This document shows, one piece after another, positions 32,215 to 49,173 of a DNA stretch of 64,000 bases. Within the stretch, counting starts at the first letter, position 1. The number at the start of each line of letters is the position of its first letter. Source of the stretch: Vicinamibacterales bacterium (GTDB taxonomy: Bacteria; Acidobacteriota; Vicinamibacteria; Vicinamibacterales; UBA2999); the NCBI GenBank assembly GCA_035649635.1, contig DASRJE010000193.1:12072-76071 (forward strand). Reading direction: 5' to 3'. Position numbers and translations under genes: made by a program. The notes under the pieces were generated by a model, which worked only from the letters and a program-made list of their open reading frames with translations, did not search any database and was not told the origin of the DNA.

Positions 32215-32234
32215 CCAAAGGGGTTCATCACACG

Positions 32235-33746
32235 TTGCGGCTGACAGACGAAGCCCTTGCCGATATCCAGGGCGTCATCACGAGCGGCTATCGACATCTG
32301 CCGCAGGCCGCGTACCTCTTCGTCAGGATGACAGACCTGACCGGTGCGCGCCGTTGGCTTTCACGCATATCGGCTTCGATCACTACTTCGAGACGATGGC
32401 CTGTCGAACGCGCATCGGCGAACGTGAAACCGCAATCGGCGATTAACGTCGGGATCACAGCAGCAGGGCTGCGCGCGTGCGGACTGCCCTCTCGTGTACT
32501 GTGCACCTTCCCTTCGGAGTTCCAGGACGGCATCACGTCCCCGGAGCGATCGCGTATTCTTGGCGACACCGGCGAGAGCGCTCCGGAGCGGTGGGAAATC
32601 GGTGGACTGCGTTCCGATCCGGTGCATGCTCTCCTGCTCCTCTTCGCGTCTGACGAGACCAACCTCAATGCACTCTGCGCGGCCCAGCGCGCGATTCTCG
32701 AGTTGTGCGATGGTGTCGTCGAGTTGCGCGACAGCATGCAACGTGGCTACAGACCAGAAACGGAGTCGGAGCCCTTCGGTTTCCACGACGGCCTCGCGCA
32801 ACCACGAATCAGAGGGGTCGACGGCCGTGGTGTAGCGACCGGTGAGTTCATCCTCGGTTACGAGAATCACTACGGGCTCATTCCGCCGACGCCAGTCGTG
32901 CCCCGCGATCTGGATCCGTCGGAGATCCTTCCGCCGCTCTCAAACCCGTACCACTCGATGGAGTCTCTGGCCGACCTTGGCAAGAACGGCTCCTATCTCG
33001 TGTATCGCAAGCTCCAGCAGGACGTCGCGGGGTTCTGGCAGTTCATGGCCAGGGAGGCCGCACGCGGCGGTCGCACCGACCCGACCACCATCATCTGGCT
33101 CGCATCGAAGTGTGTGGGACGCTGGCCCTCGGGGGCGCCTCTCGCGTTAGCACCCGACCGCGATGCGCCCGACCTGTCTGAACGGGACGACTTCTTTTAT
33201 TCAGATGATCCTGACGGGCTGCGATGCCCGGTCGGGGCGCATGTCCGCCGCACCAACCCGCGCGACGCGCTCAAGCCGTATCCGCCGCGGCAATCGCTCA
33301 GCATGACCGATGCCCATCGGTTGATCCGGCGGGGGCGCGTCTTCGGCCCGCCTCTATTCGATCCCGGCGTGCTTCGTCGCGCGTCGATAGACGCGCGAGA
33401 GACACTGCCCGAGATGCGGGACGATGGCCAGGCCCGGGGCGTGCATTTCTTCTGCGTCAACGCCAGTTTGAAAAGTCAGTTCGAGTTCGTGCAACAAACG
33501 TGGGCCAACAACCCGCGGTTTGGCGGATTGAACGACAACATGGATCCGCTGACGAGCAGTCCATGTGACGAAAAAACCGCAAGCCGCATGACGATCGCGC
33601 GTCGAGGCGCGCCCGCGGGAGCGGGCGCAGGCGCACTGCGCACACAGGTGTTGCCACGATTCGTCACGGTTAAAGCCGGCGCATACTTGTTCCTTCCGAG
33701 CCTCACGGCACTGCGCTTCCTTGGAAGGGCCGCGGCGGACACGTAG
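32235..33746 (+). CDS. DyP-type peroxidase (long form)
   Basis: ORF 32235..33746 (TTG start, AAAGGGG RBS). DIQGVITSGY, EPFGFHDGLAQP (GFxDG), SYLVYRKLQQDV, GAHVRRTNPRD and FFCVNASLKSQFEFVQ are DyP landmarks. Confidence 0.85.
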   Translation: MRLTDEALADIQGVITSGYRHLPQAAYLFVRMTDLTGARRWLSRISASITTSRRWPVERASANVKPQSAINVGITAAGLRACGLPSRVLCTFPSEFQDGITSPERSRILGDTGESAPERWEIGGLRSDPVHALLLLFASDETNLNALCAAQRAILELCDGVVELRDSMQRGYRPETESEPFGFHDGLAQPRIRGVDGRGVATGEFILGYENHYGLIPPTPVVPRDLDPSEILPPLSNPYHSMESLADLGKNGSYLVYRKLQQDVAGFWQFMAREAARGGRTDPTTIIWLASKCVGRWPSGAPLALAPDRDAPDLSERDDFFYSDDPDGLRCPVGAHVRRTNPRDALKPYPPRQSLSMTDAHRLIRRGRVFGPPLFDPGVLRRASIDARETLPEMRDDGQARGVHFFCVNASLKSQFEFVQQTWANNPRFGGLNDNMDPLTSSPCDEKTASRMTIARRGAPAGAGAGALRTQVLPRFVTVKAGAYLFLPSLTALRFLGRAAADT

Positions 33747-35367: not shown

Positions 35368-36084
35368 ATGCTGGCTCGTCTGATCGGCACCGTGCGGACC
35401 ACCGAGGATGTCATCGCTACGATGCGCGCCATTCACGAAACGCTGCCGGACACCGACGGCGTGAAATGGTTCAATTTTCTCTACCTCAACGTGACAGAGG
35501 CCGTGCTGGCTGACACGAGCGTGTGGGAGGACTGGCCGTTCCTTCAGCGTTTCGACGTCACCTTTGCGATCCTCTACTTCGACGCCATCGTGAACTGGGA
35601 ACAGGACCGCGCGAGGACACCGCACGCGTGGCGGCCGCTGCTGAGGGCCCGCTATCAGTCCGGGCGCGCACCAATACAGTTCGCGCTCGCCGGCATGAAT
35701 GCGCACATCAACCACGATCTCGCGATCGCGCTCGACCGCATGGCGGGACTCGACGGCCGTTATCCTTCACGCGATGGCGCCCGCTTCACTGATTTCCGAA
35801 AAGTGAACGACGTCCTCGAGCGCATGGAGGCGCGGCTACGCGAGCAACTGACCACTGGTCTTGCTGGCGAGATCGATCGCTCACTTGGCGACGTCGACAG
35901 CGTCGTGATGATGTGGAACATCCGCCAGGCGCGCGACGCCGCATGGACGAACGGCGAAGTCCTCTGGCAACTTCGTTCCACACCGCACCTGCAGAGAGAC
36001 TACCTTGCGCACCTCGATCAGTTCGCATCGTTCGCCGGCCGCGGTTTGCTGGTGCCACGGCTTGGCGTGAGCGCCGGCACTTAG
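35368..36084 (+). CDS. DUF5995-like protein
   Basis: ORF 35368..36084. FNFLYLNVTEAV...IQFALAGMNAHINHDLAIAL is the pattern I associate with DUF5995. Confidence 0.7.
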   Translation: MLARLIGTVRTTEDVIATMRAIHETLPDTDGVKWFNFLYLNVTEAVLADTSVWEDWPFLQRFDVTFAILYFDAIVNWEQDRARTPHAWRPLLRARYQSGRAPIQFALAGMNAHINHDLAIALDRMAGLDGRYPSRDGARFTDFRKVNDVLERMEARLREQLTTGLAGEIDRSLGDVDSVVMMWNIRQARDAAWTNGEVLWQLRSTPHLQRDYLAHLDQFASFAGRGLLVPRLGVSAGT

Positions 36085-36114
36085 GAGAAACCCGATTTCG
36101 AGTATCGTCTCCCT

Positions 36115-36483
36115 ATGCGATTGAGCAGTGCGATGGTGTACGTGAAGGATCTTCCTCGCATGCGGGCGTTCTATGGCGAGATGCTTGGCGTCAAGCCCAG
36201 CAACGACACCTGGACCGACTCGTGGACCGAATTCGACGCGGGCGGTGTTCGGTTCGCTTTGCACGCAATTCCTCCCGAGATTGCCAGCCAGATCGAGATC
36301 ACCTCGCCGCCTCGCCCGCGCGGACAGAACCCCGTGAAGCTGATTTTCGAAGTCGAAGATGTCGATGCGGAGCGCGTGCGGTTGGAGTCACTGGGGATCA
36401 CGATGGTGCAGCGGCCATGGGGCGCATGGGATGGGATCGACCCGGAAGGTAACGTGTTTGGCATTCGGTCGCCCGAGGTCTGA
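36115..36483 (+). CDS. VOC-family protein
   Basis: ORF 36115..36483. VYVKDLPRMRAFYGEMLG...DPEGNVFGI. Confidence 0.85.
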   Translation: MRLSSAMVYVKDLPRMRAFYGEMLGVKPSNDTWTDSWTEFDAGGVRFALHAIPPEIASQIEITSPPRPRGQNPVKLIFEVEDVDAERVRLESLGITMVQRPWGAWDGIDPEGNVFGIRSPEV

Positions 36484-36508
36484 CGCGGGCGCCCGCCGAA
36501 ACTCACGT

Positions 36509-37780
36509 CTATCGTGAGGCAGCCCGCATGGACGCAGGCCACTTGAGGCGGACGACCCTGGTTGCCTCCTGACCCTCAGGACCCAGCGCCTCATTCGCGA
36601 GATACACACCGGCGGCGGATGGGACGGCGGACGCAACCGACGCGAGCGCATCCCCTTCATAGAGCGCGGAATACAGCGGCGTGCGGCCATCCGGACTGAC
36701 GACCAGCACTCCCGTTTTCTGCGGCAGCGCCATGAGCAGCCGCGCCGGCACTCTCATGAGCAACGGTTTGACCCACGCGTGTTCGTGCACCCAAGTGAGG
36801 AGCCGAGTGCGATTCGAGAACAGCGCGAGCCAGATACGCCCCGCGGAATCTCGATCCATCCCGTCATCCAGCCCGATGATGCCGTCGAGGACGATTTCAT
36901 CCTGCCCCGCTTTCGGCCCTCTCAGATAGAGGCGCGTCAGGCGAAACAGCGAAGTCTGCGTAACCAGCACAGACTCCTCACGCGGTTGCCCGGGATGAAG
37001 GTCGTAGAGCACGCCGTTGATGAAGTGGAATCCTTCTGCGATGAGACGCGTCGTACGCGTCTCCAGGTCGTAGCGCCACAGGCGTCCGTTCGGCGACAGC
37101 GCAAGCGCTTCATCCAGCGCGTCGTCAACCGACGCACCGCTGTAGTCGAAGGGCTCCGAGAAGTAGATGCGCTTCCCGTCCTCCGACACTTCCAGGTTGT
37201 CGCACACGATGAGCGGCCGTTTGGGAGCCGTTATCCCCGGGCCGAGCTCGGGGGCGCCGCTATCGTTGTCCGCGTAAACGATCGAACGTTCGTTCATCAG
37301 ATCGGTCGCAGGCACGTCCACAACGAGCGGGTCAACTTTACGCGTGTCGAGAGAAAGCCGGTACAACCCAACCCGTTCGTTTGGCGCCGCCGCCGAGTAC
37401 GATCGCGATGCGCAGAAGTAAATGTGATTCGGGTCACCCGGTGCATCGTGAATCCCGTAAGCCATCAAGGGCGGATCCACGAGCGGTTCCCCGGAGTGGT
37501 TTCCGAGATTCAGCCGCCATATCTGCCCGTCGGTGGCCGTGACGAGCGCGGTGGTTCCGTCCTGCAGGAACACCGCGTCATCGAAGGCGGGCACCTTCGA
37601 TGGAAATCGCTCGAGGGCTTCCGCAAACTCAGCCGACCGATCGACCGATTGAATCGCCGCCTCGGTCGCTCGATCGATTGCGATCGAGTCGGCGATCTGA
37701 ATCTCGGCTCGCGGCGCCGCCATCACCCACCAGCCAGCGACCAGCAACGCCAGCACGACGACGGTGACGACGCGAGTCAT
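36509..37780 (-). CDS. Membrane-anchored strictosidine-synthase-like / SMP-30-type beta-propeller protein
   Basis: ORF 36509..37891 trimmed to ATG 37780 (ATGA overlap with the upstream gene). It has a TM anchor. The stretch NLEVSEDGKRIYFSE...GRLWRYDL...INGVLYD...GLDDGMDRDSAGRIWLA is propeller-like. Confidence 0.7.
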   Translation of the reverse strand: MTRVVTVVVLALLVAGWWVMAAPRAEIQIADSIAIDRATEAAIQSVDRSAEFAEALERFPSKVPAFDDAVFLQDGTTALVTATDGQIWRLNLGNHSGEPLVDPPLMAYGIHDAPGDPNHIYFCASRSYSAAAPNERVGLYRLSLDTRKVDPLVVDVPATDLMNERSIVYADNDSGAPELGPGITAPKRPLIVCDNLEVSEDGKRIYFSEPFDYSGASVDDALDEALALSPNGRLWRYDLETRTTRLIAEGFHFINGVLYDLHPGQPREESVLVTQTSLFRLTRLYLRGPKAGQDEIVLDGIIGLDDGMDRDSAGRIWLALFSNRTRLLTWVHEHAWVKPLLMRVPARLLMALPQKTGVLVVSPDGRTPLYSALYEGDALASVASAVPSAAGVYLANEALGPEGQEATRVVRLKWPASMRAASR

Positions 37781-38814
37781 CGCACGCCCGCGCCATGACC
37801 CTGCGCGGCTGACTCGGCGGGGCTTGATGACGGGTTCTGCAGCCAGCGAATCGTGTCCATCAACGTTTCGCGCAGCGGCCGCGTCGACCATCCGAGCTCA
37901 GCTCGCGCTTTCGACGTGTCGTACCACGCATAACGCCCGATGATTTGGAGCACATCGCGAGTCAAGGGAGCTGGTTTGCCGCGAATCGAGCTGATCAGCT
38001 CGAGAAGGCCGACCAGTCCACGCAGGATCGGCGTCGGAGGCACAAAGCGGGGGGCTCGAACCCCCGCGATCTCGGCCACCTGTTCGAGCAGTTGGTTGAC
38101 CGAGACGTTGTCGCCACTGAGGAGATATCGCTGCCCGGAACGGCCTCGTTCGGCGGCGAGCACGACACCAGTCGCAAAGTCCCGCACATCGAGGGCTCCG
38201 AACCCGATCGGCAGGGTGAACCGCAGTTTTTTCGTGATCACCGACTGCACCAGTTTGTTCGCTGGTGCGCCCACAGGATCGTCCGGGCCGAATGTAAATG
38301 CCGGGCACACCGTCATGACGGCGAAGTTCGACGAGGCGTACGCCAGAGCATTCAATTCCGCCTGACGCCGCATGTTGGCGTATGGAAGATCGAACGAATG
38401 CTCCTCCCAGTTGGCCGATTCATCGAGCGGTTTCGGATTCCTGTTCACACCAACGGCGAGCGCGCTCCCCGCGACGACGGCGCGCTTGACGCCGCACGCT
38501 GCAGCGGTTTCCAGGAGCTGCCGGGTGCCAGCGATGTTGATCCGTTGCATGTCATCGAGGAGCTGAGCGCCGCCCCCAACGCTCACCTTGAAAGCAAGAT
38601 GTAGCAAGGTGCCGACACCCGAGCAGGCGGAGCGCACTGAGGTGGCATCGTCCACGTACCCGGGACAGCGCTCAACATTCAGTCCCTTGAGCACATCGGG
38701 ACGGCCGTCGCGCAACTCGAGCACGCGGGGACGGACTCCGACCTCGTTCAGCCTCTTGGCGACATGGTACCCAAGGAACCCGGTCGCACCCGTGAGCAGG
38801 ACATTGGTCTCCAT
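37777..38814 (-). CDS. NAD-dependent epimerase/dehydratase (dihydroflavonol-reductase-like extended SDR)
   Basis: ORF 37777..38844 trimmed to ATG 38814 (GGAGG RBS). VLLTGATGFLGYHV is the Rossmann motif. YANMRRQAE is the YxxxK-equivalent region with R in place of K. Confidence 0.85.
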   Translation of the reverse strand: METNVLLTGATGFLGYHVAKRLNEVGVRPRVLELRDGRPDVLKGLNVERCPGYVDDATSVRSACSGVGTLLHLAFKVSVGGGAQLLDDMQRINIAGTRQLLETAAACGVKRAVVAGSALAVGVNRNPKPLDESANWEEHSFDLPYANMRRQAELNALAYASSNFAVMTVCPAFTFGPDDPVGAPANKLVQSVITKKLRFTLPIGFGALDVRDFATGVVLAAERGRSGQRYLLSGDNVSVNQLLEQVAEIAGVRAPRFVPPTPILRGLVGLLELISSIRGKPAPLTRDVLQIIGRYAWYDTSKARAELGWSTRPLRETLMDTIRWLQNPSSSPAESAAQGHGAGVR

Positions 38815-39067
38815 CGTGAGCCTCCGGCCAACAGAATTAGTCAAGAGCTAAACGACCGGCGTCGCGCGCTTGAACACGATATGACGTATGCGTGCATGGA
38901 TCGTTCGAAATGGGGGGTGTCGTCGTTTTTTCTTTGAGCGCGAGAAAGGGCGTCCGCGCGGTCGCCTGCGCGCGCGTCTAATCTCATCCATTGCTCGCGG
39001 ATTTGTTCTTGTTTCGACAAGAACGGCCAGTGAGAATGAGCCACCCCTACTGGCTGAGGTTTTACCC

Positions 39068-40903
39068 ATGCGCCTCTCCATTGATGACCATGTATACCTG
39101 CCGCCGGCTGCCGCTGCGGCGCCGGCCGCGCCCGTCGTCCCGGCCGATCCCACAGCGCCGGACATCACGTTTCTTACGAAGGAGACCGCAGCCGCGCTTC
39201 AGTCCTTCTACGCGACCATCGATCGGATTACGGCTGACAACCCCGTTCCAATCGCCAGGCTCCAGGAGCTCGCCGGGAAGGCCCGCCTCGGTCAGATCAC
39301 TCCGCCGGAATTGCAGGAACTGCAGGGACTGAAGGTCCACGCTGTTCGGCAGGGCAAGGCTGTCGCCGCCGTTATCGGCTTCTTCCTCAAGCTGAAGCCG
39401 TACCCGATGCTCGACGAGGTCAGGAAGAAGGCAAAGCTGTTTCAGGCGGTCTTCGGCCCGGTGTTGGTCGTCGAGGGAAATGCCGTTCGGGATGTGCTCG
39501 AGCGAGACCAGGATTTTACGGTTGATCCCTACGGCGTCGAGATGGTGAAAGCGATGAGCCCGGCGCACAACGGCGGGTTCACGACTTTCATCCTGAGCAC
39601 CGACGACAACGCCGCTTACGAGCCGGACAAGCGCCTGCTTTCGACGGTGTGCAACCGCGAGGACGCAGCGCGGATCACTGAGATTATCCACCGCGATTGC
39701 GTTCGCCGAGTGGGAGCTGCCCTTGCGGCGGCGCGATCCAGCGGATCATCGACGATCGACGTCGTGCAGACGCTCGCGCGCTACGTCCCGGTCACGCTTG
39801 GGCACAAGTATCTCGGCGTCCCGGTAGCTGCGAAGCCCGGCACTTTCGAATTGACTCCGGAAATGCTGACCTATTACGGGTCGCCGATTGACGGGCAAAT
39901 CGAGACCGGGCTGAACAAAGAAGATGGCGTGATCCCCGACGAGAAGCAGATGTACCTGTGGATCAAGGCGGCCTTCCGGCACTTCTTCAACAACGTGCAG
40001 AAAGACCCGCAGGTACAGAAGGACGGATTGCGCTCGTGCCGCCTGCTGCTGGCTTACCTGCTGCGCGAGGTCGCCATCCAGCGCGAGCGTGTGCTGAGCG
40101 GTCAGCCGGTGGACGACACGATGTTGACCAGGCTTGTGCTCTTTCAGCATGGCCGCTCGGCGCCCACCGTCGCGCACCCCGCGAATCTCGACCCACGCCT
40201 GGTCAGCGACCTTCGCATCGCCGAGAACGTCATGGGCACGATCGTCGGCGCCATCGCCGGCCAGGAAGAGGCCACGTGCCGCGTGATCGACTCGCTGATG
40301 CGATTGAAGGAAAGCGAGTATCGAACCACCGGATCCGCGCCGGCGAGATATGGCAGCTTTTCCGAGGTCACCGCGCTCGCCGTCAATGTCTTGAGTGGAA
40401 CTCGCGTCGCTGAAAGCCGGCGCGACCTGTACAAATACTTCCTGGAGGCTCTGCGTCTGCAGCCGCAGGGAGAAGTCCTGCTCAGAAAGTGCGTCAGCGA
40501 CGGAGCACGCATTGCGGAAAGCCGGCCACTTTTGGCCGGCACGCTCGTCTTCGCCGCACACGGGTCGGCGATGAGGGACATCCCCGATCCAGATGCCTTC
40601 ATCCTGGACAGGCCCCGTCAGCACTATCTGCAGTACGGCTGGAGCCGGCACACGTGCCTCGGGCAGCACGTCTCACCCGTCATCATCGTCGAGTCGATGA
40701 TTGCCGTGCTCGGCCTTCAGGATCTTTCGCGGCCTGACCCCGCACCCGGCGAATCGTCGTTCCCGTTCGAACGGCGGTTCGGACGGCTTCAGCTCGACGA
40801 TCAAAACCTTTATGCCACCACGTTCTCTCTCCGATTTGCCGACGCGGGTAGCACCCGTCTGTTCTGGCCGCACGCGGCGGCCGGCAAAGTCGAGGTGATT
40901 TGA
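39068..40903 (+). CDS. Atypical cytochrome P450-like protein with a roughly 130-aa N-terminal extension
   Basis: ORF 38888..40903 trimmed to ATG 39068 (GAGG RBS). Heme-thiolate loop YGWSRHTCLGQH (Cys codon 40655-40657) fits FGxGxHxCxG. I-helix-like IAGQEEAT. PDPDAFILDRP precedes the loop. Confidence 0.7.
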   Translation: MRLSIDDHVYLPPAAAAAPAAPVVPADPTAPDITFLTKETAAALQSFYATIDRITADNPVPIARLQELAGKARLGQITPPELQELQGLKVHAVRQGKAVAAVIGFFLKLKPYPMLDEVRKKAKLFQAVFGPVLVVEGNAVRDVLERDQDFTVDPYGVEMVKAMSPAHNGGFTTFILSTDDNAAYEPDKRLLSTVCNREDAARITEIIHRDCVRRVGAALAAARSSGSSTIDVVQTLARYVPVTLGHKYLGVPVAAKPGTFELTPEMLTYYGSPIDGQIETGLNKEDGVIPDEKQMYLWIKAAFRHFFNNVQKDPQVQKDGLRSCRLLLAYLLREVAIQRERVLSGQPVDDTMLTRLVLFQHGRSAPTVAHPANLDPRLVSDLRIAENVMGTIVGAIAGQEEATCRVIDSLMRLKESEYRTTGSAPARYGSFSEVTALAVNVLSGTRVAESRRDLYKYFLEALRLQPQGEVLLRKCVSDGARIAESRPLLAGTLVFAAHGSAMRDIPDPDAFILDRPRQHYLQYGWSRHTCLGQHVSPVIIVESMIAVLGLQDLSRPDPAPGESSFPFERRFGRLQLDDQNLYATTFSLRFADAGSTRLFWPHAAAGKVEVI

Positions 40904-40904
40904 G

Positions 40905-43391
40905 ATGCCGATCAACAGGATCCGACCAGTCAAGGGCTCTGCCCTGAATATCCCCGCAGAGCCCTTGTCTGGTCGCCGGTGTTTCTTGGCGCGCTTCGCG
41001 CGCCTGCGACCGCTATGCGGGGAGAGCGAGTCCAGAAATTCCACAACGAAGTGCAGAGCGGTCGCCTCCTATGTCTTGTTAACTCTGCTCGTCTGTGGCT
41101 GCGGTCGCGGGGCCGCCAACAACGAGGCCGCGGCGACAACGACGGCTGTGGCAAAGGGGACCGCGGGGCTTGTCGGACCGTTGACGAACGACAACAGCGA
41201 CGACATCGTCTCGTGGGTGGACGGACAGGTCGTGAGCGACTGGGGAGCGGAAATCAAGAAGCGCGACAACGCGATCGACGGGTATTTGAACGATACCGAT
41301 CCGGCACGATCGGAGAAGTATGGCTTTCGCAGCGGGCAGAATCCGCAGTTGGCGTGGAGTTGGTTCCGCGACTACCCGGTCGGATTCAATGGCGTTCCGT
41401 ACGTGCTGTTCAAGACGATCCTGGATCTCGATCCAAATGACCCGGATCCCACGCTCCAGAGGATTGCCCGGATTTGGAAGCACCAGTCGACAATGCCGAT
41501 CGGATCGGGGCCGTCTGCTGCGTGGACGTTCGATCACATCGGCGTAGGACCGAACCCGTCTGACTACGTCGACGGAGTGGCCCGGCCGGTCAGTGAGCGC
41601 CAGGCTGCATTGCCGTTTGGGTTCGCCTACGAGAACCCGCGATCGTTCGAGCCGCTCTCAGAAATCGAGATGAAGCGGTATGACACGCAACTGCGCCTGA
41701 AGAGCGTGTTTCAGATCACGAGCCTGCTGCTCGCCAAGCTCAGAACGGCCGATCAGGAGGAGACCTGGGAAGACGATCGGAAGGGCTTTGGCACTCCGGG
41801 ATCCATGGATCGAGTGTTCTTCTCGTGCGCGGCGTGCCACGTCGGTCGCGTCGTCGTCGGCGGGAAGATGAAATTCCTGCCCGGGATGCCGAACACCGAA
41901 GTCGAAGCGCAGTACTACTCGAAGCTGCTGATGCTGACCGCAGCGGCGCTGGTCGAGTCTGGATTCGATCCCACATCGACGACACCGGTGAACCCTGCCA
42001 ACATCTCCCCCAACAGGAATGCTATCCGCGCGCTCTATGGGGCGATGCTGAAGAAGGCGCTCGACGACCCCGAGACGATGTACGGTTCGTCACCCGGACA
42101 GATCGCCCGGGCGAAGATTCAGACGCTCGCGGTGGCCGACAAATTCCCGGATGTCATGAAGGATGTCATTGCCATCGGGGTAAAGACCCACTTCATCTAC
42201 TATGTCGTCGCCAAGAACAACGGCTACAAGCAGCCGCTTCCCGACGTGCTCGAAGATCGGCCCGGGCAGATGGATGCGTTCGGCATCGCGTCGGGTCTCG
42301 TGGCGATCCACACGCGGCGAACCAAGAATACGTTCCTGGAATTCGTGAAGAGCGATAACCCGAAGAGCCCAATCTTTACCGGGTTCTCGAAGGCCAACGG
42401 ACTGCCCACGGACACTCCAGGGATGACCGATGCGGTCACCGATCCGAAAGTCGCCGGCGACCGCGTCTTCAAGAACATCCCGGCCTGGGCCCCGCCCGTA
42501 CCGGCGCCGATCGACGTCAAGAGCGTCAATTGGGCGGTTGAACGCTATCACGCCAACTGGGATGGCAATCAGGGGGCGTCGTCGCGAACACTCGCCTCGG
42601 GCTCGTCAGCCACTGGCGATCCGCGGATGGTGAACGTTCGCATTCACGAACCGCTCAACCCGTTCATCGACAATCTACCACCACCGCCGTACCCCTTTAC
42701 GAGCGTCGATCTGGTGCGCGCAAAAGAAGGCAAGGCACTGTTCAAATCGACGTGCGCCAATTGCCACATGCCCCGGAATCAAATGATTTATCCGGCGCTG
42801 AAACTCGGCGTCGACGTGAACCGCACGATGGTGAACACGAGCGTGTCTCGCTACGGGCTTGCTGCACTGGTGACCGAGGCCTGCAGCATCTATGGCGAGA
42901 ATAACAAGGGTCAACCAGGTGCGGACTGGTGCGTACCGCAAGGCGACTGGCAGGCGAGGCTCGATGAGTACTTCCGAGACACGCCGCGCCGCTTGGCGGA
43001 AGGCACCAACGGCTACAAGGCGGACGTGCTGCACGGCATCTGGGCCCAGGCGCCCTACCTGCACAATGGCTCGGTTCCAACACTGGGCCAGCTGGTCTGC
43101 CCATCCACCCGCCCGCAGAAGTTCCTGCGCGGCAACTTGAACTACGACGAAGCGCTGGTCGGATTTGAATGGGCGACTCGGCCGTCGATGCGTTACGGTC
43201 CCAACGAGACGCTCCTCGTGAAGGAGTACGACACGACGGTTCCGGGTAAGTCCAACGCCGGTCACACTTTCGGCTCGAGCCTCTGTCCCGACACCAGCGG
43301 TCTCGATCCCGTCAACGATCGCAAGGAAATCGAATCGCGGCTGCTGCAATCGCCAGTCGGTGCGTTGCTCGCATACCTGAAGACTCTGTAA
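40905..43391 (+). CDS. Di-heme c-type cytochrome, CCP/MauG/RoxA-like peroxidase or oxygenase superfamily (probable lipoprotein)
   Basis: ORF 40905..43391. Two CxxCH motifs: CAACH (41826-41840) and CANCH (42753-42767). LHGIWAQAPYLHNGSVPTL matches the CCP/MauG-type PYxHNGS segment. A hydrophobic LLTLLVCGCG lies near residue 60. The start codon is uncertain. Confidence 0.7.
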   Translation: MPINRIRPVKGSALNIPAEPLSGRRCFLARFARLRPLCGESESRNSTTKCRAVASYVLLTLLVCGCGRGAANNEAAATTTAVAKGTAGLVGPLTNDNSDDIVSWVDGQVVSDWGAEIKKRDNAIDGYLNDTDPARSEKYGFRSGQNPQLAWSWFRDYPVGFNGVPYVLFKTILDLDPNDPDPTLQRIARIWKHQSTMPIGSGPSAAWTFDHIGVGPNPSDYVDGVARPVSERQAALPFGFAYENPRSFEPLSEIEMKRYDTQLRLKSVFQITSLLLAKLRTADQEETWEDDRKGFGTPGSMDRVFFSCAACHVGRVVVGGKMKFLPGMPNTEVEAQYYSKLLMLTAAALVESGFDPTSTTPVNPANISPNRNAIRALYGAMLKKALDDPETMYGSSPGQIARAKIQTLAVADKFPDVMKDVIAIGVKTHFIYYVVAKNNGYKQPLPDVLEDRPGQMDAFGIASGLVAIHTRRTKNTFLEFVKSDNPKSPIFTGFSKANGLPTDTPGMTDAVTDPKVAGDRVFKNIPAWAPPVPAPIDVKSVNWAVERYHANWDGNQGASSRTLASGSSATGDPRMVNVRIHEPLNPFIDNLPPPPYPFTSVDLVRAKEGKALFKSTCANCHMPRNQMIYPALKLGVDVNRTMVNTSVSRYGLAALVTEACSIYGENNKGQPGADWCVPQGDWQARLDEYFRDTPRRLAEGTNGYKADVLHGIWAQAPYLHNGSVPTLGQLVCPSTRPQKFLRGNLNYDEALVGFEWATRPSMRYGPNETLLVKEYDTTVPGKSNAGHTFGSSLCPDTSGLDPVNDRKEIESRLLQSPVGALLAYLKTL

Positions 43392-43410
43392 GAAGATAAC
43401 CTCCCAGATT

Positions 43411-43452
43411 CCTCCAACTCCGAACGGCAACAAGCTCTTTCGGAGTTGGAGG
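43411..43452 (+). terminator. 13-bp-stem hairpin CCTCCAACTCCGA...TCGGAGTTGGAGG after the di-heme gene
   Basis: Perfect 13-bp stem (43411-43423 and 43440-43452) with a 16-nt loop, 20 nt after the stop. No clear U-tract. Confidence 0.5.
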
Positions 43453-43604
43453 TGTCGATTCCGGCCGCCTTCATTCGACGCCAGCATAGAGGTAAGTGAG
43501 CAAGCCACCCCAAGAAGTAGCCATTCGTCCCAATTTGCCTGTGGGCGGTGTCGATCTGGCGGGGGTCGTTTCGACTATAAGTAGAGGCGCCAGGCGGAGG
43601 ATTC

Positions 43605-46052
43605 ATGAGTTTCGTTACAGATCTCAGGTTTGCGTTGCGCTCGCTGCTCCGGGCGAGAGGGTTGACCATCACTGTCGTGATCACCCTGGCGCTTGGTATC
43701 GGCGCCAATGCCGCCATTTTCAGCGTGGTTCGCGGCGTCCTGCTCAAGCCTCTGACCAACCGTGATGAAAATCGATTGATCTACATCCGGCAGAGCGCGC
43801 CCGGGCTCGGCGCCCCAAACGCGGCGTTCTCCGTCCCGGAGATCGACGACCTCAAGGCACGGGTCAAGTCAGTGTCCGCCTTCGGCGATTTCTCGACCAT
43901 CGGGTTCACGATGATCGGACTCGGCGAGCCTCGCGTCGTCAGTGCCGGTGTCGTCGGCGGATCGTATTTCGAGGTCATGGGGCTGCGCCCGGTGCTGGGC
44001 CGATTGATCAATGCGTCAGACGATGGGCCGCAGGCCGCGGGCGTGGTGGTGCTGACCCATCGTTTCTGGACGACGGAGTTCAAGAGCGATCCGTCGGTGA
44101 TCGGCAAGACCGTCAGGCTCGACTCGCGGGCGGCCACCGTCATCGGTGTCCTCGAGCCCTCGGTGCCCTATCCACAGGAAACGGAGATCATCGCCAACGT
44201 CGTGACCAGTCCGCACCATCTCTCAGCGACGATGGTCACCGGCCGCGTTCATCGTATGACCGAGCTGTTCGGACGCCTTGCCCCTGGCGCCGACCTCGAC
44301 GCCGCGCGCGCAGAGCTCCGCACGGCGCACGACGCCATCCGCGGTGAATATCCCGACGTGTATTCAGCGAAGGCTGACTTCCGCATCGATGCGGTGCGGC
44401 TGCGCGATCAGATCACTTCTCCGGCCAGGACGGTGCTGTGGGTGCTGCTTGCCGCTTCCGCTCTCGTGTTCGTGATCGCGTGCTCGAACGTCGCCAATCT
44501 CATCCTCGCGCGATCGGTACGACGCGAGGGTGAGCTGGCGGTGCGCGCGGCGCTCGGCGCGCGCGCGAGCGCGCTTCGTCGAACGCTGCTTGCGGAGAGT
44601 CTGCTGCTGTGCGGCACCGGCGCCGTACTTGGTGTGCTGATGGCACGACCGATGGTCGCCGTGCTATCGCGCTACGCAGCGCGATTCTCGGTGCGCGCGC
44701 TCGACGTCACCGTCGATTCCAGCCTTTTGTGGATCGGCGTGGGGCTCGCGCTGGTTGCCGCAACTCTCCTGGCGTTCGTCCCCAGGCTACCATCGGCCGA
44801 GGCGTCGAGCGGCTTCGGCCTGTCCAACGGCAGCGCCCGCTTGACGACCGGAACGAACCGACGCCTGCGCGTGTTCGCCGTGTTGCAAATCGCGGCGTCG
44901 TTCGTGCTTCTCGCAGGCGCCGGAATGTTGTTGACGACGCTTCTGGAGCTGCAGTCAGCGCAGTTGAAGCTCAACACGAGCAATGTGCTGGCACTACACG
45001 TGCCGGTCATCTCGGGCCGCGAACCGGGACAGGTCACGGCGTTCTACCAGGAAGTGCTGCGTCGTATTTCGGCGCTCCCGGGGGTTGAGCGGGTCGCCGT
45101 GGGGACGCTGGTGCCGTGGCGGGAAGCCGGCGGGTTCGGCCCGGGCTTCCAGTTCTCCGCCGAGGGCTACGCCAAGGTCGACGGCGAGGATGATCCTCGC
45201 GGACGATTCCGGACCGTCTCACCCGGCTTCTTCGCGGCCCTCGGAGCTCCGCTCATTGCCGGGCGCGATTTCAACGACGCGGATCGACGTGACTCGGAGA
45301 AAGTCGTCATCGTCAGCCAGAGCCTGGCGCAACGAATGTTTCCCAATCAGGACGCGGTGAACCGTCACGTCAGCTGGACCGATCCGGTCATGAAGTTCAT
45401 CGACGTCAGCCCGGAACCCAGACGGATCGTCGGCGTCGTTGCGGACATCGATGATGAGAATGTCGTCCCCGGCCCGGCGGTGACCATCTATCACCCTCTG
45501 GGCCAGGCTCTAGGCGGCGGAAGGCTGTTCGTGCACGCGCGGACCGATCCGTACGCGCTCGTGCCGCCGATTACGCGCATCATCAGGGAGCTCTCGGCGG
45601 ATCAACCGGTTGAAAAAGCGGCGACGCTCGACGACGTGCGCGCGGAGGTACTGGCGCCGAACCGGCTCAATGCGTTGGTCTTTGGCGGCTTTGCCGGGGT
45701 AGCACTCCTCATCGCGATCGTGGGTGTGGCAGGTGTGCTGGCCTTCTCGGTGAGCGCACGCACGCGCGAGTTCGGCATTCGGCTCGCGATCGGATCCGCG
45801 CCCAAGGATCTCTTGCAAGGGGTCGTGAAAGAGGGCGCGACGATCGCGGCCGTGGGAGTCGTGGCTGGGGTTGTCGGAGGGCTCGCACTGACACGCGCGG
45901 TCGCAAGTTACATCAACGAAGTCAGCTTACCTGGATTCGTACCGACGCTCGGCGCCGCGCTGGTTCTCGTTATTGCGGCGCTGGTCGCGTCGCTCGTGCC
46001 AGCAGCGCGCGCATCTCGTGTGGATGTCATCGACGCGCTTCGCCCGGAGTAG
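43605..46052 (+). CDS. ADOP-family duplicated MacB/FtsX-like permease
   Basis: ORF 43605..46052. DLRFALRSLLRARGLTITVVITLALGIGANAAIFSVV, plus two FtsX halves (CSNVANLILARSVRREGELAVRAALGAR and ARTREFGIRLAIGSAPKD). No padR gene lies upstream. Confidence 0.9.
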   Translation: MSFVTDLRFALRSLLRARGLTITVVITLALGIGANAAIFSVVRGVLLKPLTNRDENRLIYIRQSAPGLGAPNAAFSVPEIDDLKARVKSVSAFGDFSTIGFTMIGLGEPRVVSAGVVGGSYFEVMGLRPVLGRLINASDDGPQAAGVVVLTHRFWTTEFKSDPSVIGKTVRLDSRAATVIGVLEPSVPYPQETEIIANVVTSPHHLSATMVTGRVHRMTELFGRLAPGADLDAARAELRTAHDAIRGEYPDVYSAKADFRIDAVRLRDQITSPARTVLWVLLAASALVFVIACSNVANLILARSVRREGELAVRAALGARASALRRTLLAESLLLCGTGAVLGVLMARPMVAVLSRYAARFSVRALDVTVDSSLLWIGVGLALVAATLLAFVPRLPSAEASSGFGLSNGSARLTTGTNRRLRVFAVLQIAASFVLLAGAGMLLTTLLELQSAQLKLNTSNVLALHVPVISGREPGQVTAFYQEVLRRISALPGVERVAVGTLVPWREAGGFGPGFQFSAEGYAKVDGEDDPRGRFRTVSPGFFAALGAPLIAGRDFNDADRRDSEKVVIVSQSLAQRMFPNQDAVNRHVSWTDPVMKFIDVSPEPRRIVGVVADIDDENVVPGPAVTIYHPLGQALGGGRLFVHARTDPYALVPPITRIIRELSADQPVEKAATLDDVRAEVLAPNRLNALVFGGFAGVALLIAIVGVAGVLAFSVSARTREFGIRLAIGSAPKDLLQGVVKEGATIAAVGVVAGVVGGLALTRAVASYINEVSLPGFVPTLGAALVLVIAALVASLVPAARASRVDVIDALRPE

Positions 46053-46257: not shown

Positions 46258-46671
46258 GTGCAGACCTACGGTCGATGGCTCTGGGCTCTGACGGCGCTCT
46301 TCGTATTTCGCATCATTGCGCAGCCACTCGCGCTCGTGATCGATTCGCCGCTGTTGCCGCCGTTCGAGTCGTGGCATAGCGGTCTGCTGCCGTATCCATT
46401 GCTCGTCGTCGCCCAGCTTTTCATCGTGGCCTGGCTCGCGCTCACCGCCTGGCGTGTCTCGCACGATACGGTGACACCGAACCGCAAGGCTGGCAGATTC
46501 CTACTCACGATTGCGGGGCTGTACGCGGCGACGATGCTGACGCGGTTGATTCTCGGCGCAACCGTGCTGCGCGACGAGCGGTGGTTCGGGAGCCCGGTGC
46601 CGACTGTCTTTCACCTTGGCCTGGCGAGCTACCTGTTCGTATTCGGCCACCTGCATACGCGCCATGGCTAG
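46258..46671 (+). CDS. Hypothetical 4-TM membrane protein
   Basis: ORF 46258..46671 (GTG start) with four hydrophobic segments. Its stop overlaps the next gene's ATG by 8 nt. Confidence 0.55.
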   Translation: MQTYGRWLWALTALFVFRIIAQPLALVIDSPLLPPFESWHSGLLPYPLLVVAQLFIVAWLALTAWRVSHDTVTPNRKAGRFLLTIAGLYAATMLTRLILGATVLRDERWFGSPVPTVFHLGLASYLFVFGHLHTRHG

Positions 46672-47518
46672 GTTGCTGCCGTCGATTCACTACCCGGCCA
46701 CCATGGTCGGGGCATTTGCGTTGTTCGCCATGCTGCGAGCGGCCGGAATGCCCCTCATCGTCAGCACATACCTTCCCGCGTTGTCGGTCGCGGCCATCGT
46801 GACGTGGCTCGAGTTACGACAGCCAAACCGCGAGACCTGGCGTCCGCCCGCACGCGAGATCAGGACGGACCTGGTCTTTATGATCGTGGTGCAGTTGGCG
46901 ATGCCGCCGCTGGTCGGGTTCCTCTTCGCGAACGCGCTGGTCGAGCCCGCACGATCGCTGAATCTTCCAATCGCACGCGCGTGGCCCCACAGCTGGCCGA
47001 TATGGACGCAGGCGATCCTCATGGTGCTGGCGGTCGACTTCATGCGCTATTGGCTGCACCGTGCCGCGCACGAGAGCGACACGTTATGGCGCCTCCACGC
47101 CGTGCATCACTCCGTCGATCAGCTGTACTGGCTCAACACCGCGCGCTTCCACCCGATCGAGAAGGCGCTGCAGATGTGCCTCGACAGTCTCCCGTTCCTG
47201 CTCATGGGAGTCGATGCCACCGTGCTCGCGCTGTACTACCTGGCCTACGCGTCCAACGGTTTCTTCCAGCACTGCAACATCCGCTTGCGCTACGGCTTTC
47301 TCAATTACATCGTCGGCAGCGCCGAAACGCATCGCTGGCATCATTCGCGCGAGCCGCGCGAGTCCAACGCGAACTACGGCAACACCGTAATCGTGTGGGA
47401 CCTGATCTTCGGCACGTGGTTCCTGCCAACCGACCGGGCTGTCGACTCGCTCGGACTCAAAGACCCGGCCTATCCGAAGGCTTTCCTCGGGCTGATGCGC
47501 GCGCCGTTCAACAAGTAA
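46664..47518 (+). CDS. Fatty-acid hydroxylase / sterol desaturase superfamily membrane di-iron enzyme
   Basis: ORF 46616..47518 trimmed to ATG 46664. Histidine boxes HRAAH, HAVHHS and HRWHHS. Confidence 0.85.
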   Translation: MARLLPSIHYPATMVGAFALFAMLRAAGMPLIVSTYLPALSVAAIVTWLELRQPNRETWRPPAREIRTDLVFMIVVQLAMPPLVGFLFANALVEPARSLNLPIARAWPHSWPIWTQAILMVLAVDFMRYWLHRAAHESDTLWRLHAVHHSVDQLYWLNTARFHPIEKALQMCLDSLPFLLMGVDATVLALYYLAYASNGFFQHCNIRLRYGFLNYIVGSAETHRWHHSREPRESNANYGNTVIVWDLIFGTWFLPTDRAVDSLGLKDPAYPKAFLGLMRAPFNK

Positions 47519-47532
47519 TTGCAGAACCACTC

Positions 47533-49173
47533 ATGCACGCATTTCTGAGACGAGCGGCGATGCGCATCTACCGGCATCGCCATTGGCTGCCGCTCGAAAG
47601 AAACGCATCGCGACCGGACATCGCGCAACGCGAGGTGCTACGCGCGATTGTGTCCGCCAACAGCGCTACGACCTTTGGACGGGAACACGGGTTTGCCGAG
47701 ATCGACTGCGCTCGGATATTCGGCGAGCGGGTGCCCGTGCAACAGTACGAGACGCTGCGGCCTTACATCGAGCGACAACGGCGAACTGGTCAGACCGAGC
47801 TGACCGCCGAGGCGCCGCTCTTCTACGCACAGACCAGTGGAACGACCGGCACACCCAAGTACATCCCGATCACCAGAACATCACTGGCGATGCATCGAGC
47901 GGAGCAGGCGCTCTTCTCTTATCTGCAGTTCAGGGCGTGTCCGTCGGCATTCGACGGGATGGCGATGGGCATTATGGGCGCTGCCGTCGAGGGCCGGCTC
48001 GACTCGGGTCACTCGGTGGGATCGGTATCCGGTCATCTGTATGCGTCGCTCCCCCGATTCATTCAGTCCAGGTTCGTCGTGCCGCCCGCTGTGTCGACGA
48101 TCGCGGACTATGACCTGAAATACCGGGTCATCCTCCACCTCGCGCTCGCACAACCTCGCATCACGTATATCGGATCGCCAAACCCGTCGACATTTCTCCG
48201 GCTTCTCCATGTGTTGAAGATCGAGCGCGAGATGCTGCTGCGCTCGCTGGCTACAGGCCTGTCCAGCGTGACTGCAGCGCTCGATCCGTCGCTGCAGCAG
48301 CTCGTCGCGAGTCGTATGCCGGCGATGCCGGATCGCGCTGCGCTGCTGAACAAACTGCCTGAGCTCACTTACGCCAACGTCTGGCCCGACGTGAAGCTAC
48401 TCACGACGTGGACGGGTGGGAGTTGTGGCATTGCTCTGGGTGCGCTTCGAAAGACGCTTCCTGTCCAGACCCTCGTCATGGAACTTGGCTACCAGGCAAC
48501 CGAAGTTCGCGGGACGATTCCGCTCGAGGCCGAAACGCCCGGCGGGCTGCCACCCCTGGGGCACACGTTCTTCGAGTTCGTCGAGCGCTCGGCATGGGAC
48601 CGTGAGCGACCCGACTACCTCACCGTCGATCAGCTGGAGCAGGGATTTCAGTACTACGTTCTGATCACGACGCCGGCCGGGTTGTATCGCTACTTCATGA
48701 ACGATCTCGTTGAGGTCACAGGCTTCTTTCGAAAAACGCCACTCCTGCGGTTCGTCCAGAAGGGCAAGGGCGTCACGAGCCTGACCGGCGAGAAGCTGTA
48801 CGAAGCCCAGGTCATCGACGCGGTTCAAAACGAGCTCCCTCGATGCGGAGTCATTCCAACGTTCTTCGTCATGATCGCTGACGATGAGAAGATGTCGTAT
48901 CGACTGCTGGTCGAGGGGCAGGCTGGCCTGCCTGAGTCAAGCGCGGTGGGGCAGGCGGTCGACCGCCGTCTCGCGGAACTGAATATCGAATACCGCGCGA
49001 AACGTGACAGCGGCCGCCTCGCACCGTTGACGCTCGCGTGGCTCCGGCCCGGTGCGGGCGAGGCGTACAAGGCTGCCGCTGTCAGTGCCGGTCAGCGAGA
49101 GGGGCAACTGAAGCCTGCGGTCCTGCAACATCGTAAAGACCTGCTCATACCGCTGGACCAGTTCGTCGCATAA
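47533..49173 (+). CDS. GH3-family acyl-acid amido synthetase-like protein
   Basis: In-frame ATG 47533 within ORF 46804..49173 (the upstream part overlaps the hydroxylase gene). FYAQTSGTTGTPKYIP nucleotide motif, GLYRYFMNDLVEV, and RFVQKGKGVTSLTGEKL. Confidence 0.85.
   Translation: MHAFLRRAAMRIYRHRHWLPLERNASRPDIAQREVLRAIVSANSATTFGREHGFAEIDCARIFGERVPVQQYETLRPYIERQRRTGQTELTAEAPLFYAQTSGTTGTPKYIPITRTSLAMHRAEQALFSYLQFRACPSAFDGMAMGIMGAAVEGRLDSGHSVGSVSGHLYASLPRFIQSRFVVPPAVSTIADYDLKYRVILHLALAQPRITYIGSPNPSTFLRLLHVLKIEREMLLRSLATGLSSVTAALDPSLQQLVASRMPAMPDRAALLNKLPELTYANVWPDVKLLTTWTGGSCGIALGALRKTLPVQTLVMELGYQATEVRGTIPLEAETPGGLPPLGHTFFEFVERSAWDRERPDYLTVDQLEQGFQYYVLITTPAGLYRYFMNDLVEVTGFFRKTPLLRFVQKGKGVTSLTGEKLYEAQVIDAVQNELPRCGVIPTFFVMIADDEKMSYRLLVEGQAGLPESSAVGQAVDRRLAELNIEYRAKRDSGRLAPLTLAWLRPGAGEAYKAAAVSAGQREGQLKPAVLQHRKDLLIPLDQFVA

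Follow-up and report, generated by a model that had tools for sequence, protein, structure and literature searches.

A divergent cytochrome P450 beside a RoxA-type di-haem lipoprotein in a Vicinamibacterales genome, and the conservation of this gene set across bacteria

In Pseudomonas aeruginosa, the di-haem enzymes PA2077 and PA2078 of the RoxA clade dioxygenate fatty acids in the periplasm and then isomerise the hydroperoxide (PMC4496055), and in fungi the isomerase step is performed by a P450 domain fused to a haem dioxygenase (cited in PMC4496055 and PMC9719856). DyP-P450 fusions were surveyed in 2022 as DyP subclass V4; they were called unexplored and a two-step reaction similar to that of Ppo was suggested for them (PMC9719856). 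The present report concerns a locus of a Vicinamibacterales bacterium (Acidobacteriota) in which the gene of a divergent cytochrome P450 is followed by that of a RoxA-type di-haem cytochrome c lipoprotein. The locus lies in a window of 64,000 nucleotides (nt), the whole stretch of DNA that was analysed, to which the coordinates of genes and open reading frames (ORFs) refer. The P450 and RoxA-like genes are on the plus strand and a second pair, divergent from the first and on the minus strand, comprises a short-chain dehydrogenase/reductase (SDR) and a strictosidine-synthase-like (SSL) protein. The four ORFs had been claimed in an earlier note on this DNA and are all present in the window:

39068-40903, plus strand: divergent cytochrome P450, 611 amino acids (aa), no signal peptide (start and length against homologues, family profile, AlphaFold, Foldseek)
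40905-43391, plus strand: RoxA-type di-haem cytochrome c lipoprotein, 828 aa (Pfam, NCBIfam, PDB, invariant motifs)
37777-38814, minus strand: extended SDR of HpnA / 3-beta-HSD type, 345 aa from ATG 38814 (Pfam, NCBIfam, PDB)
36509-37780, minus strand: SSL beta-propeller, 423 aa, with N-terminal membrane anchor (Pfam, PDB)

These four genes most likely form a conserved functional set around a haem-thiolate P450 without redox partner and a second haem (per)oxidase. One genome per species was scanned and 76 loci with a relative of the P450 were identified, 75 of which were counted for linkage; the loci were compared with the window proteins by tblastn and all locus ORFs were clustered. Many of the contigs are short and the locus counts are therefore lower bounds. 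A RoxA-like gene was identified in the flanks of 54 of the 75 loci, on the strand of the P450 gene in 53 of these 54 and at 600 nt or less from it in 51 of the 75. A DyP-type peroxidase is found in the flanks of 14 loci, and one partner or the other is present in 65. The SDR was identified in 40 of the 75 loci and the SSL in 18, the latter including Nitrosomonas, Methylocaldum, Geodermatophilus, Egibacteraceae and one alphaproteobacterium. The P450 and its RoxA-like neighbour rise and fall in parallel in their identity to the window proteins (Spearman 0.91, n = 54).

The carriers comprise soil Acidobacteria, methane oxidisers, ammonia oxidisers, marine Rhodobacteraceae and Actinobacteria, DyP being the haem partner in the last. 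Gene order depends on the clade, adjacency being kept in either order. The P450 gene precedes the RoxA-like gene in Vicinamibacterales, several Methylococcaceae and Rhodobacteraceae; the reverse order was identified in Nitrosomonas, Methylocaldum and Methylobacter, where the P450 is ~33% identical to that of the window. DyP precedes the P450 in Geodermatophilus, Modestobacter, Egibacteraceae, Crenothrix and Methyloglobulus, often with two small unannotated genes at the front. The set is compact in some genomes: RoxA-like, P450, SDR and SSL genes are consecutive on one strand in Nitrosomonas halophila, and DUF (a domain of unknown function), DyP, P450, SDR and SSL genes are consecutive in an Egibacteraceae locus (L072) with a 4-nt overlap between SDR and SSL. 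The earlier note had proposed a synteny check of the P450/di-haem pair; the two genes are linked far beyond close relatives, with SDR and SSL in the same conserved set. This gene set is very probably a real functional module.

No ferredoxin or reductase family is conserved within +/-7 kb of the P450 gene in the 76 loci, which extends to conserved neighbours the earlier remark that no such partner lies near the P450 in the window. A ferredoxin motif scan of 75 loci found the strict CxxCxxCxxxCP in 2 only, looser patterns being uninformative. The other families present in at least 10 of the 76 loci are limited to a peptidoglycan-binding protein, a DyP-linked DUF and ADOP permeases, the latter clustering in 10 loci and being mostly paralogues with ~30% identity.

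The alternative partner, DyP, lacks a signal peptide and is also found fused to the P450, as in L075 and in P0364, a 905-aa protein; in these fusions DyP is first, the P450 last and there is no membrane segment. A DUF + DyP set adjoins the P450 relative in four loci (L054, L056, L072 and L074) and lies ~5 kb upstream of it in L005. The window, like L005, carries its own DUF + DyP pair 5 kb upstream, which is possibly associated with the module:

30955-33746, plus strand: 419-aa two-unit DUF (30955-32214) and divergent DyP-type peroxidase (32235-33746) (NCBIfam/Pfam, neighbourhoods)

The window DyP has ~500 aa and scores 89 bits with TIGR01413 and 24.6 bits with DyP_N, both slightly below the cut-off. 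The DUF protein consists of two copies of a unit of ~210 aa with the motifs IHF[AV]RW and DGxWxxYIDxF, and has no match in Pfam, NCBIfam or the PDB. It occurs as two separate genes in Methyloglobulus, Crenothrix and Egibacteraceae, where these genes and DyP stand beside the P450 relative.

The window P450 has no Pfam match even at E <= 10, the gathering threshold of PF00067 not being reached, and alone it matches solved P450s solely around the Cys loop (best E = 6e-4, PDB). Relatives at 30-40% identity pass PF00067 (cut-off 22.8), with 49 bits for P0271, 34 for P0291 and 79 for P0340, and a profile built from 56 family members matches 299 solved P450s (best 5.6e-14, PDB). The AlphaFold model, built on the 56-member alignment, has the P450 fold with a pLDDT of 87.6 and a pTM of 0.87. 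Foldseek returned 1353 PDB matches to this model at E <= 0.001, the top 50 of which are all P450s, and the target-normalised TM to bacterial P450s is 0.65-0.80 at 12-19% identity. These top 50 are mostly ordinary bacterial P450s, such as CYP109 (CYP109B4), TbtJ1, EryK, CYP142 and CalO2, and include the plant carotenoid hydroxylase CYP97A3 and the nitrating P450 TxtE. Judged by profile, alignment and predicted fold, the 611-aa protein is a real but deeply divergent P450 of the predicted haem-thiolate type. Its membership of the superfamily is supported by transitive and profile evidence, since the window protein itself fails PF00067.

The Cys-ligand loop YGWSRHTCLG corresponds to Y523-G532 (nt 40634-40663) with the ligand Cys530 at nt 40655-40657, and C530, G524, R527, H528, L531 and G532 are invariant in the 56 family members. 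The loop had been called non-canonical; it is mildly so only, with two deviations from PROSITE (Y for F/W and S for G/D). The ExxR motif of the K helix is EALR, with E460 and R463 invariant in the same set. The I helix spans approximately residues 381-414, and alignment with canonical relatives places A397-G398-Q399 at D-T-T; the acid-alcohol pair (A/G)Gx(D/E)T was not found in this helix. E400-E401 follow one turn after A397-G398, E401 being invariant in the family. Glu401 was considered as a direct stand-in for the catalytic Thr and rejected, the canonical-relative alignment putting A397-G398 at the D-T positions. Canonical DTT I helices do exist in P450 relatives at ~30% identity.

The window P450 lacks a signal peptide. 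It carries an N-terminal extension of ~95 residues, which is helical in the model (residues 34-109 at pLDDT above 90). The long extension noted earlier and the missing Pfam match of the protein itself justify the term atypical. The proposed likeness to CYP74 or CYP152 did not hold: neither family is among the top 50 fold matches and the spacing of the Cys loop is normal.

Approximately 21 of the 250 P450 relatives retrieved contain an N-terminal [ST]RRxxL twin-arginine (Tat) motif followed by a hydrophobic stretch and then by a lipobox Cys, among them P0271, P0274, P0280, P0281, P0288, P0289, P0291, P0294, P0298, P0301 and P0464-P0466. The combination suggests that this sub-clade comprises candidate lipoproteins exported by Tat. 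Four loci of the Tat type were examined (L078, L080, L084 and L085) and no RoxA or DyP neighbour was identified in them; the P450 adjoins Lipase_3 and esterase genes in L078 and a FeeM-like acyltransferase in L084.

The 828-aa partner contains, as expected of RoxA-type oxygenases with their monomers of ~65-80 kDa, two c-type haem motifs, C308AACH312 (nt 41826-41840) and C617ANCH621 (nt 42753-42767), and the segment PYLHNGS at residues 717-723 (nt 43053-43073). These three elements, as reported in the earlier note, are present and invariant in the homologues. The protein matches Pfam RoxA-like_Cyt-c PF21419 with 63 bits against a cut-off of 26.7 and NCBIfam NF040606, a di-haem cytochrome c peroxidase (CCP) subfamily, with 122 bits, just below the cut-off of 150. 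The NCBIfam equivalog models of RoxA, RoxB and RoxC give 36-50 bits against cut-offs of 900-1000, and by these scores the protein is a relative, not an orthologue, of the three enzymes. The only PDB relative is RoxA 4b2n (3.6e-14 with the family profile), the match being collinear over four motifs: CxxCH-1, the stretch before CxxCH-2, PY[FL]HNGSVP and a C-terminal GGH. The region of PY[FL]HNGSVP, segment 494-539 of 4b2n, aligns at 2.9e-10; the invariant His787 (SNAGH, nt 43263-43265) aligns with RoxA GGH641, the His of which is the distal ligand of the second haem, in a segment that scores just 0.8 bits. The CCP_MauG domain PF03150 gave no Pfam match at E <= 0.01, and no CCP or MauG chain is among the PDB search matches; a size of ~35-40 kDa was taken as that of canonical CCP and MauG proteins, and the window protein has 828 aa. 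From the earlier label CCP/MauG/RoxA-type, RoxA is retained on PF21419 and 4b2n, and CCP/MauG is dropped for lack of a PF03150 match. The profile search asked for in the same place therefore yields a RoxA-type protein and not a routine cytochrome c peroxidase.

Every homologue has a signal peptide ending in a lipobox, the Cys of which is invariant (Cys66 in the window, nt 41100-41102), and because of this the di-haem protein is, as far as its signals can be read, an exported lipoprotein. Most RoxA-like homologues have 780-786 aa with a 21-aa signal peptide, and the window protein has 65 residues before Cys66. The topological puzzle raised in the earlier note is real, the di-haem protein having a signal with an invariant lipobox Cys and the window P450 none. 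An AlphaFold model of the RoxA-like protein, made from a shallow alignment (74-89% identity), was discarded as unusable (pLDDT 44.5). The second haem motif is CASACH (CX3CH) and not CXXCH in the RoxA-like proteins of Nitrosomonas, Methylocaldum and Methylobacter (L051, L052, L058 and L065), and L057 has CASCH.

The SDR matches Pfam Epimerase (7.5e-20) and 3Beta_HSD, scores 208 bits with NCBIfam HpnA (cut-off 367) and is closest to HpnA, SdmB and 3-beta-HSD-type enzymes. Its top PDB relative is 3wj7 (1.2e-37), deposited merely as "putative oxidoreductase". The NAD(P) motif TGxxGFLG and the Ser are present, and the Tyr motif is YxxxR, not YxxxK, in all 33 members; where short-chain dehydrogenases have the catalytic YxxxK, the window protein and its 32 homologues share a conserved Y-x-x-x-R-R. 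The SSL is barely above the cut-off for Str_synth PF03088 (26.6 bits against 25) and its best PDB match is the rice SSL 8kg3 (2.1e-5). Its N-terminal hydrophobic membrane anchor is MTRVVTVVVLALLVAGWWVMAAP.

The gene starts and junctions involve the following elements:

40890-40907, plus strand: coupling junction, with GAGGTGA at the 3' end of the P450 gene followed by the TGA stop, one intervening nt and ATG (alignment of relatives)
40926-41075, plus strand, approximate boundaries: in-frame palindromic insertion of ~132 nt in the signal-peptide-coding region (alignment, RNA fold)
43411-43452, plus strand: 14-bp perfect hairpin (inverted repeat, folding energy)
38815-39067, no strand: divergent intergenic region (seven-locus alignment, inverted-repeat search)

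The P450 ORF exists as claimed; its start at 38888 does not stand and is corrected to ATG 39068, giving 611 aa. This start is adopted because 120 homologues have 602-614 aa, because a Shine-Dalgarno (SD) sequence and ATG are conserved among relatives (GAGG 8 nt upstream of the ATG in the window) and because the DNA further upstream diverges like non-coding sequence. The 611-aa form equals database entry P0001 in length and sequence. The longer, Tat-like start at 38888 (CRRFFFERE) was ruled out on the same three grounds. The SDR most likely starts at ATG 38814, to judge from the conserved GGAGG before it, and its stop overlaps the SSL start by ATGA at 37777-37780; the divergent epimerase/SDR and SSL pair had been described as coupled in this way and is so.

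Between P450 and RoxA-like genes, the stop TGA at 40901-40903 is separated by 1 nt from the ATG at 40905, which has an SD-like GAGGTGA 7 nt upstream. The string GAGGTGA-TGA-N-ATG is aligned at DNA level in L002, L003, L004 and L005, and the ATG 1 nt after the P450 stop was identified in at least nine close relatives (L002, L004-L007, L018, L019, L020 and L046). In those nine it opens a normal 21-residue lipoprotein signal (MPTNWIRLL...GC), and the window keeps the corresponding ATG (MPINRIR...). The junction read in the earlier note as translational coupling is therefore real and conserved among close relatives. Two alternative starts of the RoxA-like gene were discarded, TTG codon 27 having no SD and TTG codon 58 leaving too short a signal, and ATG 40905 was kept.

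The 65-residue segment before the lipobox is explained by a lineage-specific, in-frame insertion of ~132 nt between the first codons and the hydrophobic core of the signal. It is common only to the window, L003 and P0121 and is absent in L002, L004 and L005. The insertion is strongly palindromic with three hairpins (RNA fold of 40890-41070, -86.6 kcal/mol, z = -4.7), its 12-nt arm occurs a single time within the window, and compensatory changes preserving the hairpin arms were not seen in L003. By its sequence it looks like a small repeat element tolerated in a coding region.

A perfect hairpin closes the gene pair, as had been noticed, with a stem of 14 bp rather than 13 (43411-43424 / 43439-43452) beginning 20 nt after the RoxA-like stop codon. 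It folds with -32.7 kcal/mol (z = -4.4 relative to shuffled sequences) and lacks a U tract; the terminator scan did not pick it up, and no exact second copy of its arm is found elsewhere in the window. The transcript may end here. In the region before the P450 start, the alignment of seven Vicinamibacterales loci delimits a conserved block at 38980-39060. The block holds an invariant CAGTGAGAATG, a perfect 8-bp palindrome GTTCTTGT-TTCG-ACAAGAAC at 39005-39024 and a weak promoter-like pair TTGTTT-17-GAGAAT at 39009-39037. The promoter scan does not call this block, and the Rfam scan of 36000-44000 gave a chance-level isrO match only (E = 0.61). The block may be a promoter plus operator.

Other genes were identified around the module. 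A DUF5995 gene lies between DyP and SSL (35368-36084), and a member of this family is found just upstream of the module in Nitrosomonas eutropha (L065). Directly downstream of the module is an 815-aa duplicated ADOP permease of MacB/FtsX type (43605-46052), found at that position only in L005 and L009. ADOP-type permeases are typical of Acidobacteria. Further on, a fatty-acid-hydroxylase-family membrane protein, a GH3-family acyl-acid amido synthetase and an MR/MLE enolase-superfamily gene stand in a row (46616-50300), an unusual context for a bacterial GH3 that is not conserved in L005. Absent from the window is a secreted Cys-rich protein of ~316 aa with PF01471, which neighbours the P450 relative in 10 loci of Rhodobacteraceae and some methanotrophs (among them L031, L034, L042, L043, L056 and L074).

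Conservation, co-orientation, coupling, folds, haem-ligand motifs and localisation signals of the module are shown by the analysis. The favoured reading built on them, to which we give a little less than an even chance, is that the genes serve a single pathway for a lipophilic unsaturated substrate; the pathway would be divided by the inner membrane, and its P450 would work without a dedicated redox partner. The specific chemistry set out here is more tentative and rather doubtful, the substrate class, the order of steps and the partner independence being inferred. On the periplasmic side, the RoxA-type enzyme would add O2 at a double bond (C=C) in a lipophilic fatty acyl or isoprenoid substrate, giving a hydroperoxide or a cleaved carbonyl, and the oxygenated product would cross or remain in the inner membrane. 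The cytoplasmic P450, which lacks the I-helix Thr for normal O2 activation, would rearrange or further oxidise this product with no dedicated ferredoxin. The SDR of HpnA / 3-beta-HSD type would then reduce a resulting carbonyl, and the membrane-anchored SSL propeller would hydrolyse or cyclise a product outside the membrane. Since the two haem enzymes are predicted in different compartments, the intermediate would have to be membrane-soluble; the DyP without signal peptide points to a substrate reachable from both membrane faces or to a small oxidant such as peroxide. The hand-off of a peroxide or hydroperoxide from the di-haem enzyme to the P450, already proposed in the earlier note, is suggested by analogy. 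As a whole, the interpretation given there is partly supported: its observation is confirmed with corrections and the CYP74/CYP152 likeness is not borne out.

Several points weigh against the pathway. The P450 and its RoxA-like partner are predicted in different compartments in this genome, and DyP is a peroxidase and not a dioxygenase, without signal peptide, so that the two partners are perhaps not equivalent. The P450 fold neighbours are mostly ordinary monooxygenases. RoxA-like genes of the clade occur without an adjacent P450 in L081 and L082, the flanks of L011, L033, L036, L041 and L048 hold no partner for P450 and SDR, several Vicinamibacterales loci having these two genes only, and the SSL is limited to its 18 loci. 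Many bacterial P450s use unlinked ferredoxins, which makes a missing neighbour weak evidence.

The same genes could be a peroxide-handling set in which the RoxA-like lipoprotein in the periplasm, the DyP in the cytoplasm and the P450, as a peroxygenase or peroxidase, all consume H2O2 or organic or lipid hydroperoxides. Carbonyls and lactones formed in this way would be removed by SDR and the PON-like SSL, and the set would serve the repair or detoxification of oxidised membrane lipid, not biosynthesis. This is consistent with two unrelated haem peroxidase-type partners on either side of the membrane, with the DyP-P450 fusions and with carriers that are strongly aerobic and either membrane-rich or exposed to oxidative stress (such as nitrifiers, methanotrophs and Geodermatophilaceae). 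The loss of the Thr of the O2-activation pair, with the family-invariant Glu401 one turn further on, offers a lead only. In haem-thiolate peroxygenases, acid-base catalysis is carried out by a distal Glu, and replacing Thr by Glu in P450s confers activity driven by H2O2. However, alignment with canonical relatives does not place Glu401 at the Thr, the 76 loci have no conserved neighbouring stress gene, whether a regulator of the OxyR/PerR type or another, and RoxA itself is a dioxygenase and not a peroxidase (PMC4496055). We hold this explanation to be unlikely. An ordinary class I P450 monooxygenase, acting in terpenoid, steroid or hopanoid-like catabolism or tailoring with unlinked ferredoxin and reductase, is improbable too; the RoxA-like protein would then attack this compound extracellularly or serve only as an electron carrier. 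Such an enzyme would agree with the best fold and profile matches, bacterial monooxygenases with the steroid-oxidising CYP125, CYP142 and CYP109 among them, with the SDR being nearest HpnA, SdmB and 3-beta-HSD-type enzymes and with the DTT I helices of the ~30% identical relatives. Those steroid P450 matches are generic, however, at 12-19% identity; the acid-alcohol pair is lost throughout the clade, whose members are consistently accompanied by, or fused to, a second haem enzyme and not redox partners.

The use of NO in a chemistry like that of P450nor or TxtE is very unlikely. The module is present in at least nine Nitrosomonas loci and in many Methylococcaceae, and TxtE, which is among the fold matches, is the only NCBIfam model touching the window P450 (1.1e-5). 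That score is 24 bits against a cut-off of 500, however, the module is equally common in Vicinamibacterales, Rhodobacteraceae and Actinobacteria, and nitrogen-oxide chemistry leaves no role for SDR and SSL. Incidental adjacency of independent genes, to which the lone RoxA-like genes of L081 and L082 and the P450 loci without partner in their flanks could be ascribed, is extremely improbable given same-strand adjacency in 51 of 75 species from four phyla in two gene orders, the fusions with the alternative partner and the conserved coupling junction.

Within the pathway proposed above, it is conceivable, though on the doubtful side, that the module is a widespread, hitherto undescribed hybrid in which a periplasmic RoxA-type dioxygenase, replaced in some lineages by a cytoplasmic and sometimes fused DyP, acts with a clade of partner-independent P450s on membrane-soluble unsaturated lipids or isoprenoids to give oxylipin-like or cleaved products, which SDR and SSL finish. 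If so, nitrifiers, methanotrophs and abundant soil Acidobacteria would have a third, hybrid way of performing diol-synthase-type chemistry, with sister P450 lineages exported by Tat as lipoproteins. The P450s form a deep clade missed by standard domain models and nearly always paired or fused with a second haem enzyme, which makes it a good place to seek natural peroxide- or hydroperoxide-driven P450 chemistry. RoxA-type oxygenases are extended beyond rubber degraders to ammonia oxidisers, methanotrophs and dominant soil Acidobacteria, and in those hosts oxidised lipids or isoprenoid fragments could be signals or repair intermediates. Function can be tested directly, since several carriers are in culture: Ruegeria sp. 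HKCCD8929, Nitrosomonas eutropha, N. halophila, N. communis, Methylobacter, Methylocaldum, Geodermatophilus and Modestobacter.

Among the known systems, the PA2077/PA2078 oleate diol synthase (FadCcp) is, by description, a two-gene unit of exported RoxA-clade di-haem c enzymes of ~65-70 kDa (PMC4496055), whose first enzyme is a lipid-double-bond dioxygenase and whose second step is a hydroperoxide isomerisation. Both of its enzymes are di-haem and periplasmic, whereas the second enzyme here is a cytoplasmic P450, and it has no SDR or SSL partner. The fungal linoleate diol synthases (Ppo) share with the module a haem oxygenase and a redox-partner-free P450 that rearranges a hydroperoxide, and their fusion is mirrored by the bacterial DyP-P450. 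They differ in that the oxygenase is an animal-peroxidase/cyclo-oxygenase-type domain and not a c-type di-haem protein or DyP, and in being a single eukaryotic polypeptide in one compartment; their sequence relation to the module is shown only at the level of the P450 superfamily. RoxA (4b2n) is the only solved relative, with collinear motifs and PF21419 above cut-off, but the window protein is a lipoprotein and not a secreted soluble enzyme, is ~100 residues longer and belongs to a type whose hosts are not known rubber degraders.

In DyP subclass V4, DyP and P450 domains are also linked in nature (PMC9719856), with the P450 N-terminal, membrane segments and DyP C-terminal; the fusions found here have the reverse order and no membrane segment. 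The CYP74 allene oxide synthases, CYP152 peroxygenases and P450nor likewise have no canonical I-helix Thr and no linked redox partner. However, none of them is among the 50 best fold matches, the window P450 does not have the CYP74 Cys-loop insertion, and no Arg-Pro as in CYP152 was seen in the I-helix stretch aligned to the acid-alcohol pair of canonical relatives, as judged by reading the sequence without a CYP152 aligned. Each protein of the module is in a known superfamily, and public annotation already gives "cytochrome P450" and "RoxA-like". Literature searches found no published description of the P450/RoxA/SDR/SSL module. What appears to be new is that the conserved association spans four phyla, that RoxA-type and DyP partners replace each other, that a whole P450 clade has lost the O2-activation pair and that the layout involves two compartments.

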